Part shown: piece after piece, positions 481 to 10,893 of the stretch
How the letters are laid out: every line of letters starts with the position of its first letter
Numbering within the stretch: position 1 is the first letter of the stretch
From: Moorena sp. SIO3A5
GTDB lineage: Bacteria; Cyanobacteriota; Cyanobacteriia; Cyanobacteriales; Coleofasciculaceae
Length of the DNA stretch: 64,000 nt
Direction: 5' to 3'
NCBI RefSeq assembly: GCF_010672205.1
Contig: NZ_JAAHHD010000019.1
Location: 31,963 to 95,962 of the forward strand
Program-made: the position numbers and the translations under genes
Notes under the pieces: model-generated
Told to the model about the DNA's origin: nothing
What the model saw: only the letters and a program-made list of their open reading frames with translations
Database searches by the model: none

Positions 481-1025
481 CGCCACTGAATAGGACTACC
501 AGTTACTTTAGTTGATTGTGTTGAAATCTCTTCCCCTGCTAAAAGAGACGCGATCGCACTGTTTAAGTAATGGGCTTGTACTGCGTCACCATCTTCGGGA
601 TTATCATCAACCGATCCATTATAGCATACAATTCCCTTATGGTCAATTAAAAATGCCTCAGTGGTTTTCTGGGCACCAAAGCTGTGAGCTACATCTTGAG
701 TTGGATCCCAAAGGTAAGGAAAATTCAATTGCTGATCTTGGCAGAACTGCTTCATCTCCTCAAAACTCTCTGCGGGGTACTGATAAACATCATTGGCATT
801 AATGCCCACTAGGGTAAAACCTTGATCTTCAAACTGGTCTTGAATGTGTTTGAGTCTTGGGATGTAGGACTTGACATAGGGGCAGTTGTTGCCTAAGAAA
901 ATAACTCCCACTCCTGAAAAACGTTCTAAGTAACGGCAGAGATGGTGAACCTGCTCATCAGTTCCCGGCAATTCAAAATCCGGAGCATAACTGCCAATGG
1001 TGATGATGATTTTTTCTATAGTCAT
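477..1025 (-). CDS. thioredoxin-fold thiol-disulfide oxidoreductase (redoxin/TlpA-AhpC family)
   Basis: 182-aa ORF with the APDFELPG...VIFLGNNCPYV redoxin signature. The 3' end overlaps the end of repeat copy A. Confidence 0.7.
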   Translation of the reverse strand: MTIEKIIITIGSYAPDFELPGTDEQVHHLCRYLERFSGVGVIFLGNNCPYVKSYIPRLKHIQDQFEDQGFTLVGINANDVYQYPAESFEEMKQFCQDQQLNFPYLWDPTQDVAHSFGAQKTTEAFLIDHKGIVCYNGSVDDNPEDGDAVQAHYLNSAIASLLAGEEISTQSTKVTGSPIQWR

Positions 1026-1387
1026 GGGTGATGGGTGATGGGTGATGGATCATGGGTCAACCCCCTTTACAATGCAAGCTTTGGTTAAGGGGAGATGATG
1101 CGATCGCTAATTAGCTCATAGACGAATTTAGCATCAAGGGTAAATTTCCCGACCCAATTCTTAATCGAGCCTATTCCACCTGCTCAGAATCTAAAAGAGC
1201 TTCTGGAGCATTTTGCCAACCTTCACCATAGGTTGTCGCGGCTCAATAGGCAATCCGTAAAATCACCACTCCTGCAGCTGACTATTTACTAGAAAACTAA
1301 ACACTGAAAGCCCGGCATCTTTAGATTAGATCGGGGATGAAAGTGACCAGCGAGTTTAGTCGCCGTAAAAAAACTTCTATCAAGAGG

Positions 1388-1416
1388 TTGTCGCTACATT
1401 AGCGCCATAGTATAAT
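1388..1416 (+). promoter_or_regulatory. consensus sigma70-like promoter (TTGTCG-N17-TATAAT) heading repeat copy B
   Basis: -35 box at 1388-1393, 17-nt spacer, TATAAT at 1411-1416. A ~60-bp module including this promoter is shared with the promoter upstream of the tnpB-like gene at 2511-2560. Confidence 0.5.
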
Positions 1417-1422
1417 TGAAGT

Positions 1423-1900
1423 ATAGGGTACAGGCTGAAAAACCGCAGGCTGAGCCGGGAGAGAGACCCGTAACTTACCGACCTGAAAGTAGTAATGCCC
1501 GGAGGGTAGGGAAAATCCTCCTTTCTTGATGCAGTCGCTCATGGGGGAAACCCCCAAGACCGCGCTGCATCGCTAAAAACCCAACCATCGACTACCAATC
1601 GGTGTGTGAACCCAGCAAGACAAAACTTGAGAAAACAACGGTACGGCGGGGCACGCCGAAACCAGGTGAAACAGGGAAGCAACGGACTTGATAAGGCACT
1701 TCTCAATAAGTAACTAAACGCCCAAGGAGATTAGCCCGCTGGGTCTTTTGTGAGCTAAACTCAAACCTTGGTTTTGACGGGGCTTTGGTTTAGATATTGC
1801 TTAGTTTTTGGCAGCTTCAAAGATTAAGACACAAAGGTTTAAGGCCGATCGTAGATCTGGGAATCCCCGTCTCTTTAGAGCGGGGAGTGTCAAAAAATGT
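1423..1900 (+). ncRNA. Copy B of the ~450-bp structured repeat element, probably transcribed from the promoter at 1388-1416. It contains an inserted small hairpin repeat (gatgcagtcgctcatgggggaaacccccaagaccgcgctgcatc, ~1520-1565)
   Basis: No ORF; about 75% identity to copy A in conserved blocks; ends in the hairpin ccccgtctctttagagcgggg; sits directly downstream of a consensus promoter. Confidence 0.4.
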
Positions 1901-2510
1901 AAAGGTAACGCTATGGCATAACTTGGGATTTTTTGATCATGTCCTCCTCTTTCACAGCCCCAATCAGGGATCAGATTGAAACAAAAACCTGGATTTGGCA
2001 GGGCTTTTCTATTGGGTATAAAGCTTACGGTCATTCTGGACCAGCTGTGGTTATGGTCCATGGCTTTGGGGCATCTTCCGGACATTGGCGCAAGACCTTG
2101 CCAGTGTTGGGGGAAACCTGCCGATGTTATGCCATTGATTTGATTGGCTTTGGGGCTTCAGCTAAACCGACTCCTGGTATAGAAATAGACTACACCTTTG
2201 AAACCTGGGGGCAACAAATTGCCGATTTCTGTCGGGAGGTGGTTGGTGGTCCGGCGTTTTTAGTCGGAAACTCTATTGGTTGTATTGCGCTGATGCAAAC
2301 CGCTGTAGATAATCCAGAGCTAGCCAAAGGAGTCGCCCTGCTCAACTTTTCTCTACGACTACTCCATGAGCGTAAACGGGCTGAACTGCCTTGGTATCAG
2401 CGTCTTGGCGCACCACTACTTCAACGATTCTTAAAGATTAAGTGGGTTGGCCTCGCATTTAGACCCCTAAAAATAGGGATAAATCGGTATTTAATACCAC
2501 AATTCGGACA

Positions 2511-2539
2511 TTGACATTTTACTAGCGCTAGAGTATAAT
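2511..2539 (+). promoter_or_regulatory. consensus sigma70 promoter TTGACA-N17-TATAAT driving the tnpB-like gene
   Basis: TTGACA at 2511-2516, 17-nt spacer, TATAAT at 2534-2539. The -35, spacer, -10 and ~20 nt downstream are homologous to 1388-1440. Confidence 0.55.
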
Positions 2540-2564
2540 TGAAGTGTAGGATTCAGACCTAACT

Positions 2565-4022
2565 ATGCCCAAGAAAGTAGACACAGCAAAAAAGAGATCA
2601 ACTCAAATCGTTCCTGTCATAGGGATGAGTGAGTTGGTTCAGGCTGAGTTGCTGTCTACCATGAAAAAACTGGGCATCGTCAGGTCTGAATCCTACAACA
2701 AGCTAGGTAGTATTAGTCATTGGGGTCTTGATTGGAAAAAAGCCTATCCAGAGGTCAGAAGTTTTAGGACTCCTGATACCCTGGGACTGCCAGCGAAATT
2801 GATGGAATGGACGGTCAGTGATGTAGCAAAAGCTATCACAGCTCAGCAGGCAGCTTGCACTGATGCGGTAATTAAGAAGATTTACAAAAAATTTCCAGGG
2901 AGGGACGGCCAAAGGAGAAGAAAGGAACTTTGTAAACAGCTTAAGACTTTAGCTTTTATAGATGATCCATTGCTGCATAGACTTGTTAGGAAGGAATTTC
3001 AGCGAGGGCATTCCTGGGTCAAGAATCAGATAGTCTATCAACAAGTAGGATATAAGTGCAAAAGGCTCTCTCGTAATACTTACCAACTAGAGTTGGCTGG
3101 ATTGAGGAGAGGAAAGAGAAACAAAATAACCGTTAGGTCTAATCGGAAAATAAAAGGCCAGATTAGACTGGTATACAAGCAACTCTTGGGAAAGTTTGAG
3201 ATTCACTTTTTAGTAGACTATGGCACCGTAGAAATCCCTGCCAACCGTCGAGCTATTGGGGTAGACAAGGGGTACACAGAGGCTTTTTATGATTCAGATG
3301 GTCAGGCACACGGAAAAAACTTAGGAAAAGTAGCAACCAATAAATCGGATCGCATCTGTGCAAAAAACCGCAACAGAGGGAAGCTTTGGGCGCTTCATAG
3401 AAAACTAGAAAAAATCGACCCAGCCAAGTCGGCTCGAATACTCAAAAATAACCTAAGTAGAAAAACTGAAAATCGCCGATACAGAAAAAATCAATCAGAG
3501 ATTACGGCCATAATAGGAGCCGCATCTAAGTCCCTTTTTAATGGGGAATCATTAAAAGTATTTGCCGAAAATTTAACACAGCCGATTAGAAATAAACGCC
3601 AGTCTAAGGCCATGTCCCGTAAACTTAATAGTTGGATGAAAGGAGTAATGCGGGAATCCTTGCAGAAATGGGCTAATTGGACTGGCTCGGTTGTAACAGA
3701 AGTCCAGCCTAGCTACACGTCGCAAGTTGACTCCGTAACTGGAACCCTATTAGGGAAAAGGAGCGGGGACAATTTTACCAGATTCAATGGGGTCGTGTTG
3801 CAGGCTGACCACAATGCTGCCAAAAATGTCCTTAGCAGAGGTACGGACAAGGATATCACCCGGTATATGAGTAAAACTGAGGTGCAGGCAGTATTGTTGC
3901 GCCGTACCGCGCGTTTCTTGGAAGGTATGGGACTGAGTCTGCTAGATGCAGTTGAGCTTGGATGGCTTGACTGCAAGCATAGTAAAACTCGGGCTTTCAA
4001 GCAACTCCTCAACGGGATTTGA
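2565..4022 (+). CDS. tnpB: TnpB-family (OrfB, RuvC-like) protein of 485 aa with a degenerate zinc finger
   Basis: RuvC-I IGVDKG, RuvC-II VFAENL and RuvC-III ADHNAAKNV motifs are present. The segment between RuvC-II and RuvC-III (SYTSQVDSVTG...FTRFNG) has the spacing of the TnpB CxxC...CxxC zinc finger but no cysteines. Confidence 0.6.
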   Translation: MPKKVDTAKKRSTQIVPVIGMSELVQAELLSTMKKLGIVRSESYNKLGSISHWGLDWKKAYPEVRSFRTPDTLGLPAKLMEWTVSDVAKAITAQQAACTDAVIKKIYKKFPGRDGQRRRKELCKQLKTLAFIDDPLLHRLVRKEFQRGHSWVKNQIVYQQVGYKCKRLSRNTYQLELAGLRRGKRNKITVRSNRKIKGQIRLVYKQLLGKFEIHFLVDYGTVEIPANRRAIGVDKGYTEAFYDSDGQAHGKNLGKVATNKSDRICAKNRNRGKLWALHRKLEKIDPAKSARILKNNLSRKTENRRYRKNQSEITAIIGAASKSLFNGESLKVFAENLTQPIRNKRQSKAMSRKLNSWMKGVMRESLQKWANWTGSVVTEVQPSYTSQVDSVTGTLLGKRSGDNFTRFNGVVLQADHNAAKNVLSRGTDKDITRYMSKTEVQAVLLRRTARFLEGMGLSLLDAVELGWLDCKHSKTRAFKQLLNGI

Positions 4023-4549
4023 GGAACGTCCAGAAAGATAAGTGGCAGGCTTGACTCCAATTGCTGAATGACCACTTCTCACTCGGACCACAATAGATTG
4101 AACCTTGACCGTTTTGTACCGGATTATCACGATTTATTACGGTTTAAGAGTATCCCAGTATTTTTTTAGTCAGCTGGCTAAGCCTAAAGTAGTGCGTAAT
4201 ATTCTGTTGCAAGCCTACTGTCGTCCAGAAGCCGTCACTGATGAACTGGTTGATCTAATCATGGCACCAGCAGCTGATCCCGGTGCAGCTGATGTTTTTA
4301 TTGCCTTTACTAGCTATTCTCAAGGACCACTACCAGAAGACCTGATCCCAATTTTGCCTTGTCCTGCGATCATACTATGGGGCAGCAAAGACCCCTGGGA
4401 ACCCATTGACTTGGGACGAGAATTAGCGAAATTCCCCACTGTAGAAAAGTTTATTCCTTTAGAAGGTTTGGGTCATTGTCCCCAAGATGAAGCACCAGAG
4501 ATAGTCAACCCGATTTTGCTCAATTGGATTGGGGAAAATCCGGTTTAAG

Positions 4550-5075
4550 GTTAGCTGGTTGAAGGTTATTAAAGGGTTGAAAGTTAGCTGGTTGAAGGTT
4601 GAAGGTTAGCTGGTTGAAGGTTGAAGGTTAGCTAGTTGAAGGTTTAAGGTTTAGTAAGCATTCAGCTATCAGCTCTCAGCTATCAGCTCTCAGCTATCAG
4701 CTCTCAGCTCACAGCTATCAGCTATCAGCTCTCAGCTCTCAGCTATCAGCTATCAGCTCTCAGCTCTCAGCTTTTGAATAAAATAAGCTGACGGCTGACT
4801 GCTGACTGCTGACAGGTAGTAGGGTGGGCAAATACCAAGCCAATGACCATTTAATCTGGAATTCTGTCATTTGCCCACCCTACAATAACTATAGCTTTTG
4901 AATAAAATAAGCTGACGGCTGACCGCTGACGGCTGACCGCTGACGGCTGAATGCTTACAAGGTTTAATGTTGAAGGTTACCCAGTTGAAGGTTTAAGGTT
5001 TAATGTTGAAGGTTACCCAGTTGAAGGTTTAAGGTTTAATGTTGAAGGTTACCCAGTTGAAGGTTGAGTTAACAA
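4550..5075. repeat. STRR-type repeat island. It holds gttgaaggtt-type repeats, a CAGCTAT/CAGCTCT heptamer array, a CTGACGG heptamer array, a central 15-bp-stem hairpin (tagggtgggcaaat...atttgcccacccta), and a 32-bp unit x3 (ggtttaatgttgaaggttacccagttgaaggtttaa)
   Basis: Direct reading of the sequence. The whole is bracketed by the inverted GTAAGCATTCAGC (4656) and GCTGAATGCTTAC (4948). Confidence 0.85.
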
Positions 5076-5196
5076 CAATCGCGATCGCAAATCCGCCAAC
5101 ACCCCCCCAACTAACCTAACATTCAACCTTGGCCTTTCGGCCACGCTACGCGAACAACCCTTTAACAACCTTCAACCCTTTAACAACCTTCAACCT

Positions 5197-6024
5197 TCAA
5201 CTATCCTTAACTGGTACCAGCTCTAATTGATAGCGATAGAGAGCCACAGGTTTTTCCAATGCTTTAAAGTAATCGGGGTCTTGTGGTGAAAGGTAAACCG
5301 CTGTGACTTGGTCAGCTTTAATGATCGGAGTAGGTGATTTATGGAACTGATATGCTGTTGTGGTTTCTACTTCGTTGAAAAAAGGTCGGCGAGTACCGCG
5401 AAAGACTTGGTTGACAACTTCTGTAGCATTGAACTGATCCGGAGCTGGTATTTCAGAAGCACGTCCAGTAATCACCGAAACTAGTTGGCTCCCGGTGCGC
5501 AGAATGGTAATCTGACGATTAGGGGAATTGGGGTCTACTTTGACGGCTCTAATTATGCGATCGCCTAAGTAAGCCCTAGCAATATTCAACCCATTGAACG
5601 CTCGGTCAGCAACCACCTCTTCAGCAACCACCTCTGAGGTAGGTTTTAATACTGATCGATTTTTTCTAGAACGTCGAGTTCTAAACGGAATAAACCAATC
5701 CCCAAGCCCTGAGCTTGATTTCCCAACTTGTTGAAACCGCACCAGAAAACTAATTGGTTCTTTTAGATGACTGCGATTACCTTCAAATCCTGGTGTCACT
5801 ATTTCTGGTGCTAGAGGTGCTATCTGCTCGATCAGGGTGCTGGTAACTTTCCAAGTTCCCTTCATCCAAGTGGGATATACCAAATCCCCGGTCGCCGCTG
5901 TGACTGGTGGTTTGCTTTTCCAATCGGGAAACTGACCTAAACGCTCAGCTAACTCTCCTGCCTGAGCCTCACCACCAGCCAGAAGCAAGGTTAAAACCAG
6001 ACATAATCCCAGAATTCTTCTCAA
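5197..6024 (-). CDS. hypothetical secreted protein (N-terminal signal peptide)
   Basis: 275-aa ORF with the hydrophobic N-terminus MRRILGLCLVLTLLLAGGEAQA. Confidence 0.5.
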   Translation of the reverse strand: MRRILGLCLVLTLLLAGGEAQAGELAERLGQFPDWKSKPPVTAATGDLVYPTWMKGTWKVTSTLIEQIAPLAPEIVTPGFEGNRSHLKEPISFLVRFQQVGKSSSGLGDWFIPFRTRRSRKNRSVLKPTSEVVAEEVVADRAFNGLNIARAYLGDRIIRAVKVDPNSPNRQITILRTGSQLVSVITGRASEIPAPDQFNATEVVNQVFRGTRRPFFNEVETTTAYQFHKSPTPIIKADQVTAVYLSPQDPDYFKALEKPVALYRYQLELVPVKDS

Positions 6025-6598: not shown

Positions 6599-6780
6599 CC
6601 TAAGCAGCTTATACCCCACAGTGCATCTGACCCCAGCTAAAAATAAAGACGTATTAGGAAATAGCTGATCTAAACCTGTAGTTGACTAATGCCTTTTGTA
6701 ATTCAGGTGCCCTTGACCTTGGCGAATTAAATTCGCCAAGGGTCGCACCTCAGGATAGCCGATTAAAAACGATATTACCC

Positions 6781-9700
6781 ATGAGCCAAATCAAATTAGC
6801 TGTGAGTCGCATCAGCCAGTCTCTGGCAGCCGTGTCTTTGTTGGTAGCCCATATTGGTGTCATGCCAACTCAAGCACAGCCTATTCCAGCCAATGATGGC
6901 ACTCAGACCCAAGTCACCTCCGATGGCAATCAATTTGACATTGATGGTGGAACCCCCTCTGGAGATAATCTCTTTCACAGCTTTGAGGAGTTTGGTCTAG
7001 ACCAAGACCAAATTGCTAACTTCCTATCTCAACCGGGTATAAAAAACATTCTGAGTCGGGTCACCAGTCGTAATGCTTCTGTGATCAACGGTCTGATAAA
7101 AATCACAGGGGAGGGCAACCCTAACCTGTTTTTAATGAACCCAGCAGGCATAATTTTTGGTGCTAATAGCCAGCTGGATGTCCCCGGTTCATTCACCGCA
7201 ACTACGGCCACCAGCATTGGCTTTGGTGATGAGAATTGGTTTAATGCCTTTGGTGACAATGACTACTCTACCTTAGACGGTACACCCAGTGCCTTTGCGT
7301 TTGGAACATCCGAGACACCAGGACTAATTTTTAATGAGGGTATAGAAATCCTAGCAGGAAATAACCTGACTTTAATCGGTGGTACTGTCATTAATACCAA
7401 TCAACTGGAGCTTCCAGAAGGAACAATTACTATAGCTGCTGTGCCTGGGGAAAGTTTGGTAAAAATTAGCCAGCAAGGACTGTTGCTGAATTTGGAAGTT
7501 GAAGCCCTAACCTCAGATCCTTCCACAGCAGAACAATCTTTTACACCGCTCTCTTTAGCGGAGCTATTAACCGGGGATGGTGTCAGTCATGCCACAGAAT
7601 TTACGGATAATGGTGATGACACCGTGACCTTGACTGGTTCTGGCATCACTATAGCGCCTGGGGATGTAACTGCTAAGGACATAACAGCACAAAGGGCAAT
7701 CCTGTCTGCCAACAATAACCTGACTGTTTCTGCCAACAATGACCTGACTCTGAGCGCAAGCCAGCTATCTAGCAAGAACACCACCCTGTCTGCCAACAAT
7801 GACCTGACTCTGAGTGCAAGCCAGATATCTAGCGATAACATTACCCTGTCTGCCAACAACAACCTGAATTTGAGCGAAAGCCAGCTATCCAGCACTAAGG
7901 ACTTAACCTTATTAGCAAAAGAGACGGTGCTGATCAGGGACACAACAGATAATTCCTTCCAAGCGGTAGCAGAAGGAAACCTCAAGATTCAGGGGGATGG
8001 GGGCATTGATATCCAAGCACTGAACAATCCCGACACCCGCTTCCAGAGTGGTGGCGACCTGACGTTAGTCAGTGCCACCAATGGCAAGATCTCTACAGAT
8101 GCTCACTTTGCCAGTGGCGGTAATTTCTCAATTGAAAATTTAGCTGGTCAACCACGTGACTTTGTTAGCCTCCAAGACCCAATTATCACTGCTGACGGGG
8201 ATGTTACGTTTGGGGATTACACAGGGTCTTCTCTTAAAGTAGAGTCCACAGGAAATATTGAAGCTGGAAATATCAAAATCACCGCACCAGATACTGGGCT
8301 AGCTGATTTAGACCCAGATTCAGCTTCAGATATTGGCCAATCAGATATTAACACTTTAAAAACTAGTCGTGCTGTGATTTTGAGGGCGGGCTTGAGTAAA
8401 GATGAATTGACCAATCCAGTTACGGACAATTCTGGAGATGCTTCATCTCAAGTTACGGACAATTCTGGAGATGCTTCATCAGGCAGTATCACCATTGGTA
8501 ATATCGACACCAGTGTTAATCCTGTTAATTCTACTAATGATGGTCCTGTAATTGAGGGTAATGCTGGTCCTGTAATCTTATCGGCTCAAGGTGACATTAT
8601 TTTTCGCAGCAATAGTGATGGTACAAATAATGATTTTACCCAAATAAGAACGACAGAAAGAAATGGTAATAATTCTGGTAATGTATTTTTGGAAACCAAA
8701 GAAGGCAGTATTAGGATAGAGGGAGTAGGACTCGATATCAATACTGAGGTTTCAGGCGGTGATAAGGGTGGTAAAGTAACGTTTCAGGTTCCAAATTTAA
8801 ATAATATCGTAGATATTATCGACTCTGGTAAGTTGCAACTCAGGACAAGAGCTCGGGGTAGTGGTGATGCTGGTGATGTAGAGTTTGTTAGTCAGCAAGA
8901 GATCAGCCCAGAGCAGGAACAACAAATAAGAGATCAAATCCAGGAAGATGTGCGGGCTTTCGGTGAAGGGGATATAGGTGATTTGATTTTTAGCCGTTTT
9001 CCCACAGATACTAATACAGAAGAGGAAACAAACCAACAAAACGACACAAACCAACAAGAAGAAACAGACCTTATAGAAGAAACCGACCTTATAGACACTG
9101 GTGAAACCGACCTTATAGACACTGGTGAAACCGACCTTATAGACACTGGTGAAACCGACCTTATAGACACTGGTGAAACCGACCTTATAGACACTGGTGA
9201 AACCGACCCTAAACTTAACCCTGAGCCTAGCTTGGGCGAAGGTAATGAAATTGTTAATGAAACATCCCCTGACACAAGTAAGCCCAACGATGGAGACGGT
9301 GGTAGCCAGCCTCCCGTTTCCCCCTCTGACAAGACTATAAGTGACACGCCAGAACCCTCTAGTTCAGACCCTGGTAGTTCAGACCCTGGTAGTTCAGACC
9401 CTGGTAGTTCAGACCCTGGTAGTTCAGACCCTGGTAGTTCAGACCCTGGTAGTTCAGACCCTGGTAGTTCAGACCCTGGTAGTTCAGACCCTGGTAGTTC
9501 AGAACCTGGAACCCCTACTGCGTCATCTCAATCAAATTCCCCAACTGAGGAGGTCTCACCTGAAAGTGACCCAGTTTATTTAATTGAAGAAGCCTTCACC
9601 AAAGAATATGAATCACACTTTCAGCGACCGTTCAAGACCAAAATCAACACTCAGAATGATGTCCGCAATCGGACTCGGGAGCTTGAGAGGGAGACAGGGC

Positions 9701-10893
9701 TAAAGACTGCAGTGATTTACGTCAGTTTTGTCGAAAACTCAAATACATTACCAGGCACTCGATGTCAAACTCCCTCAATCCCTGTTCCCAAAATCGACCG
9801 ACGGTTTGGTTACCGACTCTCTGAGGTGCCTCAAGCACCAGAGCGTTGCTTACCACAAGCAAACGACCAGCTGGAACTGTTGGTGATCACCGCTGAAGGT
9901 AATCCAATTGTCCGGCGAATCAATGGTGCCAGTCGTGATCAAGTCCTAGCTGTGACCAATAGATTTCAGCGATCGCTTAGCAATCCCCACAGCTTGGATG
10001 CCAAAGCCCACCATTACCCAGCTGAGCAACTTTATCGATGGATCATAGGGCCATTAGAGAAGGAATTAAACGCCCGCAAGATTAAGAGCCTAATATTTGC
10101 TATGGATCAGGGTTTGCGTTCCCTACCTATAGCAGCTATCTACGATGGGCAAAAATATCTGGTTGAGAAGTATGGTGTTAACTTGGTGCCTAGTCTGAGC
10201 TTAACCTATTCTCGTCACACAGATGTTAGACCATTCCGGGTGCTGGCAATGGGAGCATCGAAATTTCCTTATCAACAGCCTTTGCCTGGGGTAGAAGTGG
10301 AGTTAACCACCATCACTGAAACACTGTGGAAAGGTCGCTCTTTTCTCAACGAAGCCTTTACTCTGGAAAATTTAATGGCTCAACGACAACAGAGGCAATA
10401 TGGCATCATTCACCTAGCCACCCATGCAGAGTTCAACTCGGGAACTCCTAACAATTCCTACATTCAGATGTGGAACCGCAAACTAAGGCTGTATGAAATG
10501 AAAAATCTACTTTATGAGCCATCGGTAGAGTTGTTGGTACTCAGCGCTTGCCGAACCGCTTTGGGCAATCGAGAAGCGGAGTTGGGTTTTGCTGGGTCAG
10601 CCTTTCAGGCAGGAGTTGACTCGACTTTGGCAACCCTTTGGTATGTTAGTGATCAAGGTGCTCTGGGGCTGACTACTGAGTTTTACCGTCAGTTGAGAAA
10701 GACATCGAGTAAAAGCGAAGCTTTACGACAGGCACAGTTAGCAATGATTCAAGGCAATGTGCGTATCGAGAATAATCAGTTATATGGCTCGGGCAAGAAC
10801 ATCTCGTTACCGCCAGAATTGTCAGGACCAGGAAAACAAAGCTTTTCTCATCCCTACTATTGGGCTGCTTTCACTCTGGTTGGGGATCCCTAG
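6781..10893 (+). CDS. large secreted protein with an N-terminal filamentous-haemagglutinin/TPS (haemagg_act) domain and a C-terminal CHAT protease domain
   Basis: TPS-domain signature NPNLFLMNPAGIIFGANSQLDVPGSFTATTA. Parallel-beta-helix style repeats (LSANNNLTLSASQLSS). C-terminal CHAT His/Cys dyad context (IIHLATHAEF ... LVLSACRTALG). The ORF starts at 6682, but the probable signal peptide begins at Met34 (6781). Confidence 0.7.
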   Translation: MSQIKLAVSRISQSLAAVSLLVAHIGVMPTQAQPIPANDGTQTQVTSDGNQFDIDGGTPSGDNLFHSFEEFGLDQDQIANFLSQPGIKNILSRVTSRNASVINGLIKITGEGNPNLFLMNPAGIIFGANSQLDVPGSFTATTATSIGFGDENWFNAFGDNDYSTLDGTPSAFAFGTSETPGLIFNEGIEILAGNNLTLIGGTVINTNQLELPEGTITIAAVPGESLVKISQQGLLLNLEVEALTSDPSTAEQSFTPLSLAELLTGDGVSHATEFTDNGDDTVTLTGSGITIAPGDVTAKDITAQRAILSANNNLTVSANNDLTLSASQLSSKNTTLSANNDLTLSASQISSDNITLSANNNLNLSESQLSSTKDLTLLAKETVLIRDTTDNSFQAVAEGNLKIQGDGGIDIQALNNPDTRFQSGGDLTLVSATNGKISTDAHFASGGNFSIENLAGQPRDFVSLQDPIITADGDVTFGDYTGSSLKVESTGNIEAGNIKITAPDTGLADLDPDSASDIGQSDINTLKTSRAVILRAGLSKDELTNPVTDNSGDASSQVTDNSGDASSGSITIGNIDTSVNPVNSTNDGPVIEGNAGPVILSAQGDIIFRSNSDGTNNDFTQIRTTERNGNNSGNVFLETKEGSIRIEGVGLDINTEVSGGDKGGKVTFQVPNLNNIVDIIDSGKLQLRTRARGSGDAGDVEFVSQQEISPEQEQQIRDQIQEDVRAFGEGDIGDLIFSRFPTDTNTEEETNQQNDTNQQEETDLIEETDLIDTGETDLIDTGETDLIDTGETDLIDTGETDLIDTGETDPKLNPEPSLGEGNEIVNETSPDTSKPNDGDGGSQPPVSPSDKTISDTPEPSSSDPGSSDPGSSDPGSSDPGSSDPGSSDPGSSDPGSSDPGSSDPGSSEPGTPTASSQSNSPTEEVSPESDPVYLIEEAFTKEYESHFQRPFKTKINTQNDVRNRTRELERETGLKTAVIYVSFVENSNTLPGTRCQTPSIPVPKIDRRFGYRLSEVPQAPERCLPQANDQLELLVITAEGNPIVRRINGASRDQVLAVTNRFQRSLSNPHSLDAKAHHYPAEQLYRWIIGPLEKELNARKIKSLIFAMDQGLRSLPIAAIYDGQKYLVEKYGVNLVPSLSLTYSRHTDVRPFRVLAMGASKFPYQQPLPGVEVELTTITETLWKGRSFLNEAFTLENLMAQRQQRQYGIIHLATHAEFNSGTPNNSYIQMWNRKLRLYEMKNLLYEPSVELLVLSACRTALGNREAELGFAGSAFQAGVDSTLATLWYVSDQGALGLTTEFYRQLRKTSSKSEALRQAQLAMIQGNVRIENNQLYGSGKNISLPPELSGPGKQSFSHPYYWAAFTLVGDP

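Follow-up and report, generated by a model that had tools for sequence, protein, structure and literature searches.

Insertion sequences of the IS607 family, such as IS607 of H. pylori and ISXfa1, insert between matching dinucleotides without a longer duplication, the dinucleotides being recombined via a double-stranded circle, and carry a tnpB gene with a right-end guide RNA (PMC10711439). A C4 zinc finger is typical of TnpB and not universal: Altae-Tran et al. (2023) report its loss in large TnpB branches and call its role unclear (PMC10691335). In the pro-Fanzor TnpBs of Yoon et al. (2023), which are IS607-associated and mostly cyanobacterial, RuvC-I reads DPG, an alternative Glu stands six residues ahead of the CxxC, and the zinc finger is intact (PMC10711439). 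Here we analyzed a stretch of 64,000 nucleotides from Moorena sp. SIO3A5 (contig NZ_JAAHHD010000019.1), hereafter the window, in which an alpha/beta-hydrolase gene is split by an insert encoding a TnpB whose zinc-finger cysteines are missing. All coordinates are those of the window and all mapped features lie on its forward strand. We regard it as very probable that the segment 2453–4154 represents a non-autonomous member of the IS607 family from which the serine-recombinase gene tnpA has been lost and in which both ends, a predicted strong promoter, tnpB and a 3' guide-RNA scaffold have been kept.

The open reading frames (ORFs) 1933–2514 and 4105–4548 are the N- and C-terminal halves of a single alpha/beta-hydrolase gene (Pfam Abhydrolase_1/6), as proposed in an initial annotation made from the sequence alone. 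Scanning a single genome of each species, we found four Moorena species to possess uninterrupted hydrolase orthologues (loci L004–L007) with 95–97% protein identity over residues 1–302, none of which naturally contains the intervening sequence. DNA alignment with these loci places the left break between 2452 and 2453 and shows collinearity to be back from 4155, the right break falling at 4154/4156 with a 2-bp CC ambiguity. When 2453–4156 is deleted in silico, an intact hydrolase ORF of 303 amino acids results, of which 297 residues are identical to those of L004. The empty sites in the orthologues and the restored ORF thus confirm the insertion, the split of the gene and the 1.7-kb size of the insert, whose limits, initially set at 2463–4165, had to be moved by about 10 nucleotides at each end. 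The 5' part of the hydrolase gene accordingly spans 1933–2452 (Abhydrolase_1, E 1.6e-15; collinear with the four orthologues to 2452, the last two nucleotides being the left CC) and the 3' part 4155–4548; the gene has presumably been inactivated by the insertion. An identical locus is present in assembly GCA_010672265.1 and in two sister assemblies. The insertion is limited to one lineage and its flanks are undamaged, differing by about 3% from those of the empty-site species. It is later than the split from these species. For the genome, it represents a clean, datable gene-inactivation event by a non-autonomous insertion sequence in Moorena.

The exact ends of the 1702-bp element (2453–4154, TCGCA...GAGTATC) are fixed by independent Moorena copies (L084, L087, L171–L174), with which homology starts at 2450/2453 and stops at 4154/4156, and whose left flanks end in the same G-N-C. 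The empty site GGTTGGCC/AGTA (that is, GGTTGGCC/AGTATTTTT) has one CC, whereas the occupied site has a CC on each side of the insert, the left core or crossover dinucleotide at 2451–2452, with a G at position -3, and the right core dinucleotide at 4155–4156. By analogy with ISXfa1, the RNA scaffold probably ends with this right CC. In all 15 independent copies compared, the left-flank dinucleotide equals the right-end dinucleotide (12 CC, 2 TC in L172 and L173, 1 AC in L168), and 14 of them have a G immediately before the left dinucleotide; crossover at a matching dinucleotide is the trait of IS607. The left end (2453–2564) contains the subterminal repeats AAATCGGTA (2481–2489) and AATTCGGACA (2501–2510), putative TnpA binding sites. 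An AAAAyGG(T/A)ACA-type motif of this kind is repeated in the left ends of the autonomous elements L089, L090, L091 and L169, just upstream of tnpA. In the right-end tail (4089–4154) the repeats ACCGTTTT (4108–4115), ACCGGATT (4118–4125) and ACGGTTTA (4139–4146), recurrent in the copies, run in inverse orientation to the left-end motifs. The terminus GAGTATC (4148–4154) follows, and GAGT[AC]TC plus NC is kept in 14 copies, beyond which the flanks are unrelated. A sigma-70-type promoter, TTGACA-N17-TATAAT, is predicted at 2511–2539, 25 nucleotides upstream of the tnpB ATG, with a 12/12 consensus match in a promoter scan. Small left-end hairpins of the window copy were considered as end hairpins of the IS200/IS605 type and rejected, not being conserved in L084. 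A separate observation concerns L171 (M. producens PAL-8-15-08-1), where a second right-end-like terminus, GGTTTAAGAGT, stands immediately past the right end (~2600–2620), pointing to remnants of this insertion sequence family arranged in tandem or nested within one another.

The left end leaves only 112 nucleotides to the tnpB ATG. No serine recombinase TnpA, with its MerR-like helix-turn-helix (HTH) and resolvase catalytic domains, is present inside the window copy, which agrees with its initial description as a tnpB-only element. Autonomous relatives resemble IS607 and ISXfa1 in having a MerR-HTH plus resolvase-type serine transposase upstream of tnpB, and it is in its missing tnpA, as well as in the missing zinc finger of its TnpB, that the window copy differs from that family. 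Of the 80 related metagenomic loci, 30 have an ORF of about 200 amino acids immediately ahead of tnpB and on its strand; this ORF scores 180–208 bits on the NCBIfam model 'IS607 family transposase' (cutoff 110) and has the HTH and resolvase domains. An IS607 TnpA adjoins tnpB in L090, L091, L100 and others. The Moorena genomes also encode IS607 TnpAs: L168, L169 and L170 are full tnpA-tnpB elements whose right ends match the window element (...GGTTTAAGAGTATC plus NC) and whose left ends have the same AAAAyGG(T/A)ACA-type subterminal repeat, found in inverse orientation in the right end too. Because tnpA is absent here and directly upstream of tnpB in relatives, the window copy was filed as a non-autonomous derivative, and the matching flanking dinucleotides together with the IS607 TnpA beside relatives lead us to read it as a tnpA-deleted IS607 element. 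TnpA is plausibly available in trans, since one assembly (GCA_010672485.1) contains both the autonomous L170 and L003, whose TnpB is identical to that of the window. Loss of tnpA is recurrent in this family. In a lineage with 68–71% TnpB identity to the window copy, L089 (929–1202, compared with L090 515–787 and 1201 onwards) has independently lost about 413 internal bp, including most of tnpA, and L088 has a 5'-truncated tnpA. The family has undergone an expansion in Moorena, which holds well over a hundred distinct tnpB variants of it, and cyanobacterial relatives bear the NCBI label 'ISTko1 family'.

The tnpB gene (2565–4022) is an intact ORF of 485 amino acids. Its product matches Pfam PF07282 (Cas12f1-like_TNB) with 32.3 bits, above the cutoff of 26.3, and a profile of its paralogues matches AsCas12f in the PDB. 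Two alignments were used, A1 with 28 Moorena and Symploca paralogues and A4 with 52 sequences down to 32% identity. In both, the D-E-D triad of the RuvC domain is invariant, namely RuvC-I Asp D234 in IGVDKGYTE (3264–3266), RuvC-II Glu E335 in VFAENL (3567–3569), at its canonical place about 50 residues ahead of the former zinc finger, and RuvC-III Asp D415 in QADHNAAKN (3807–3809). An AlphaFold2 (AF2) model built from A4 reached a predicted local distance difference test (pLDDT) score of 85.6 and a predicted template modelling score (pTM) of 0.62, with pLDDT ~90 over residues 380–420; no conclusions were taken from an earlier model from the shallow A1 (pLDDT 56.8, RuvC/TNB <50). The model has the WED/REC/RuvC/TNB fold of solved TnpB and Cas12f structures. 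The top 50 Foldseek matches in the PDB are all Cas12f, TnpB, Fanzor2 or other Cas12 (E down to 1e-11), with a Foldseek probability of 1.00 against AsCas12f, ISFba1 TnpB, ISDra2 TnpB and Fanzor2. The likeness to ISDra2 TnpB, ISFba1 TnpB and Cas12f (8h1j, 8iaz, 8j12) extends over the full-length fold (TM normalised to target 0.52–0.60), the canonical positions of the triad and the YTSQ and ADxNAA motifs, whereas sequence identity is only 10–16% and the four zinc-finger cysteines are all replaced. A C-terminal tail of about 60 residues (425–485), whose coding sequence overlaps the RNA scaffold, further distinguishes the window TnpB from the solved structures. It does not belong to the pro-Fanzor or RIIr group, as it has GVDKG, the canonical Glu in VFAENL and no CxxC. 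Comparison with eight paralogues gives ratios of nonsynonymous to synonymous substitution (dN/dS) of 0.075–0.164; the protein is under strong purifying selection.

Two minor features of tnpB were also seen. The paralogues P0057 and P0117, otherwise different, have the same in-frame VRVAWPFG insertion after RuvC-I (A1 columns ~272–279), perhaps a small insert that is mobile or derived from a repeat. A 27-nt inverted repeat (25/27 complementary) pairs 2545–2571, covering the tnpB 5' untranslated region, ribosome-binding site and ATG, with 2671–2697 (codons 36–44), and could in principle occlude translation initiation. Its complementarity in eight paralogues is 69.5%, against ~33% in slid controls, and its covariation is not above that of shuffles (93/500).

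In place of the C4 zinc finger (CxxC...CxxC) between RuvC-II and RuvC-III, the window TnpB has residues 384–409 (3714–3791), YTSQVDSVTGTLLGKRSGDNFTRFNG, reading YTSQVDSVTG...FTRFNG, and there is no Cys in residues 384–412, in agreement with what had been noticed initially. In the alignment to AsCas12f, YTSQ-R-C-S-E-C-G stands opposite YTSQ-V-D-S-V-T-G, so that the first CxxC corresponds to D389/T392 and the last Cys to N408; the four positions are taken by D389, T392, T405 or a deletion, and N408. The absence of the cysteines is kept in 28 of 28 Moorena and Symploca paralogues. Relatives from metagenomes, recovered with the A1 alignment as query (a scan with the single TnpB protein as query gave nothing), share 34–71% identity and fall into three classes with 4–5 Cys (YTSQxCSxCGC...FHCxxGCG), 1 Cys (YTSQMDSRxG...FHCFDG) or, as in the window copy, 0 Cys. 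The same mix is found among cluster representatives (1233 clusters, E up to 1e-3), and IS607 TnpA neighbours occur beside TnpBs of all three classes. Named hosts of close relatives are Moorena, Symploca, Calothrix, Scytonema, Brasilonema and Iningainema. Conservation of D389, which takes the place of the first Cys, reaches at least 90% in A4. The replacing region is modelled with pLDDT ~90 and beta strands at 398–400, 403–405 and 411–413, and the fold is predicted to be retained despite the loss of the cysteines.

Zinc-finger loss is therefore an ancestral, clade-wide trait of an IS607-associated TnpB clade and not damage to the window copy. To call this protein an unusual variant, as was done at first, overstates the case, given that the trait runs through many cyanobacteria and metagenomes. 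In view of the report by Altae-Tran et al. (2023), the loss is real but not new as a category (PMC10691335). Their zinc-finger-lacking branches resemble the window clade in having lost the C4 zinc finger between RuvC-II and RuvC-III (PMC10691335); RIIIr-4 differs in its rearranged RuvC-III, the window TnpB having the canonical RuvC-III Asp (QADHNAA). The relatives with 1 or 4–5 Cys provide a ready natural series for probing the role of the zinc finger.

A guide RNA had been expected at the 3' end, at about 3950–4165, and this position proved essentially right. RNAalifold on 13 copies predicts a structured omegaRNA (or right-end RNA, reRNA) scaffold at 3915–4088 with seven helices: 3915–3930/3989–4004, 3946–3949/3977–3980, 3951–3958/3964–3971, 4006–4012/4019–4025 (spanning the tnpB stop codon), 4028–4038/4079–4088, 4040–4045/4072–4077 and 4048–4050/4063–4065. 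These comprise 49 pairs, with 95.3% of cells paired and compensatory changes in 19 pairs; none of 500 shuffles reaches the observed covariation and slid controls give at most six such pairs. The stem of the stop-codon hairpin, for instance, varies between copies from TCCTC/GAGGA to TGGCT/AGCCA or TGGTA/TACCA. Common to all copies downstream of the stop codon are GTGG...CCAC, CTCACTCRGACMACAAT and the terminus GAGT[AC]TC-NC, and the conserved tail continues from the scaffold to 4156. To judge from these features, the element would produce a structured guide RNA that overlaps the tnpB 3' end and ends at the right transposon end. Rfam gave no match in the region at gathering thresholds, and none in 1000–4700 even at E up to 1. 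By analogy with characterised TnpB/IS607 reRNAs, in particular that of ISXfa1, the guide would start at 4157, which makes AGTATTTTTTTAGTCAGCTG (4157–4176) the predicted guide segment (PMC10711439). A 3' hairpin next to the guide was also considered as an RNA structure; it is present in L092–L095 and L117 but replaced by direct repeats in the Moorena copies, and the segment was therefore treated as a DNA-level repeat region.

An element with tnpB only, like those of the IS1341 type, might instead belong to IS200/IS605, in which case its transposase would be a Y1 HUH enzyme acting on single-stranded DNA, and insertion, without duplication, would take place on the 3' side of a short GCC target. 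The left flank consistently ending in G-N-C would fit such a target, and one paralogue bears the NCBI name 'IS200/IS605 family element transposase accessory protein TnpB'. However, not one of the 80 related loci has a recurrent Y1 neighbour and the only recurrent neighbour is the IS607 serine transposase; in this the clade also differs from ISDra2, whose partner is a Y1 transposase. Nor does a fixed target motif predict that left-flank and right-end dinucleotides covary (TC/TC, AC/AC), and the ends have inverse-orientation subterminal repeats, not conserved one-strand hairpins. Membership in IS200/IS605 is accordingly very unlikely. IStrons of the IS607/IS605 type with TnpB exist as well, and since the element and the hydrolase gene are oriented alike, the element might be such a chimera, splicing out of the hydrolase mRNA and leaving the host gene functional. 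The shared orientation has a 50% prior, however, and neither a group I intron, expected at the 5' end of the element, nor any other Rfam family was detected in 1000–4700 at E up to 1; moreover, the left end is just 112 nucleotides long and filled by repeats and promoter. We give this explanation practically no credence.

The IS607 derivative being the preferred reading of the element, its protein can be viewed in different ways. The zinc-finger-free TnpB may no longer be a nuclease but a decaying or domesticated RNA-guided DNA binder, similar to TldR or Cas12k, that is carried along. The missing zinc finger would agree with this, nuclease activity in the clade is a prediction, and the insertion itself is uninformative on TnpB activity. 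TldR and Cas12k, on the other hand, have lost the RuvC residues, unlike the window clade, where D234, E335 and D415 are invariant over 52 sequences down to 32% identity. A dN/dS of 0.08–0.16, a gene still within transposon ends beside a covarying guide scaffold, and conservation of the replacement residues themselves (D389 at least 90%) equally argue against decay, and we consider it improbable that the protein has ceased to be a nuclease. Conversely, the zinc-free TNB might be an innovation with a function of its own and not just a loss that was tolerated, yielding a fully active, zinc-independent RNA-guided nuclease with its own target-adjacent motif (TAM, ~GYC). The cysteine ligands would then have been replaced stepwise (from 4–5 to 1 to 0) by a conserved set of polar or acidic residues, D389, S390, T/N392, D402 and N/D408, which might stabilise the fold through hydrogen bonding or coordinate an ion other than zinc; if so, zinc independence would perhaps be advantageous in zinc-poor marine cyanobacteria. 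What this proposal is compatible with is conservation, predicted fold and purifying selection only, and we rate it as speculative and rather unlikely.

For the IS607 derivative preferred here, the following course of events can be proposed. TnpA supplied in trans would excise the element as a double-stranded circle, the CC core of which would recombine with the G-CC site inside the hydrolase gene and so inactivate it. TnpB, loaded with a transcript ending in the right end plus ~16–20 nt of flank, would after excision cut the restored empty site (TAM ~GYC, next to AGTATTTTT...), and repair from a sister copy would then retain the element (homing). TnpB is not the transposase, and the insertion is for this reason no evidence for activity of the zinc-free TnpB. 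The initial statement that this TnpB is apparently still mobile confused two proteins, the insertion being ascribed to the serine recombinase TnpA acting in trans.

Several points weigh against this interpretation. No tnpA was found in the 64-kb window, either in the ORF list or by tblastn, so that mobilisation in trans has to be supposed. The NCBIfam model NF040570 (guided_TnpB) matches residues 69–425 with E 1e-21 and 77.8 bits, below its curated cutoff of 100. ISXfa1 has a GG core and a GGG TAM (PMC10711439), whereas in the window family the core, read on the tnpB sense strand, is CC, TC or AC and is preceded by a G at -3, and the TAM suggested here, ~GYC, is a flank consensus from 15 sites only. 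The omegaRNA and DNA cutting by the zinc-finger-free TnpB of this clade are predicted from sequence. No near-identical second copy was found, and present-day activity can only be surmised. Within the 64-kb window, blastn, tblastn and an end-motif search revealed no other copies. The closest paralogue, L087 (1382–3086, corresponding to window 2453–4156), is a mosaic, 99–100% identical at 2453–2800 and 3850–4156 and 68–80% in between, which suggests recombination or gene conversion between insertion sequence copies and not a simple recent duplication. The description of the insertion as recent thus stands in a relative sense only, as postdating divergence from species whose flanking DNA differs by about 3%.

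The locus is a well-delimited case of a kind already described in outline and no new kind of system. To the TnpB field it offers a natural example with exact ends, core dinucleotide, promoter and covariation-supported scaffold, and it supplies an empty-site target for a TnpB clade associated with a serine recombinase, without the zinc finger but with the canonical triad.

Further repeats and inserts surround the hydrolase gene. Another insert confined to the lineage, about 594 bp long (1294–1887), lies just upstream of its start; the four other Moorena species have only 12–16 unrelated bp at this site. A diverged paralogue of this insert, 75–88% identical, lies 1.3 kb upstream (13–480). The insert at 1294–1887 has no long ORF, no Rfam match and a fold z-score of -0.73. 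At 1400–1433 it contains a 34-nt promoter-like motif (TAGCGCyAkAGTATAATTGAAGTrTAGG) in common with 2523–2556 of the tnpB element, and the promoter scan gave a 10/12 sigma-70 match at 1388–1416; two possible identities are a small-RNA gene and a further non-coding mobile element. Immediately beyond the stop codon of the hydrolase gene, 4542–5201 holds dense short tandem repeat arrays with 7-nt units (GGTTGAA, TCAGCTC, GCTGACG) arranged in 22-, 28- and 36-nt higher-order repeats. Farther downstream, an ORF of 1403 amino acids (6682–10893) shows N-terminal repeats of a haemagglutinin-like kind together with low-complexity repeats of GETDLID and PGSSD.

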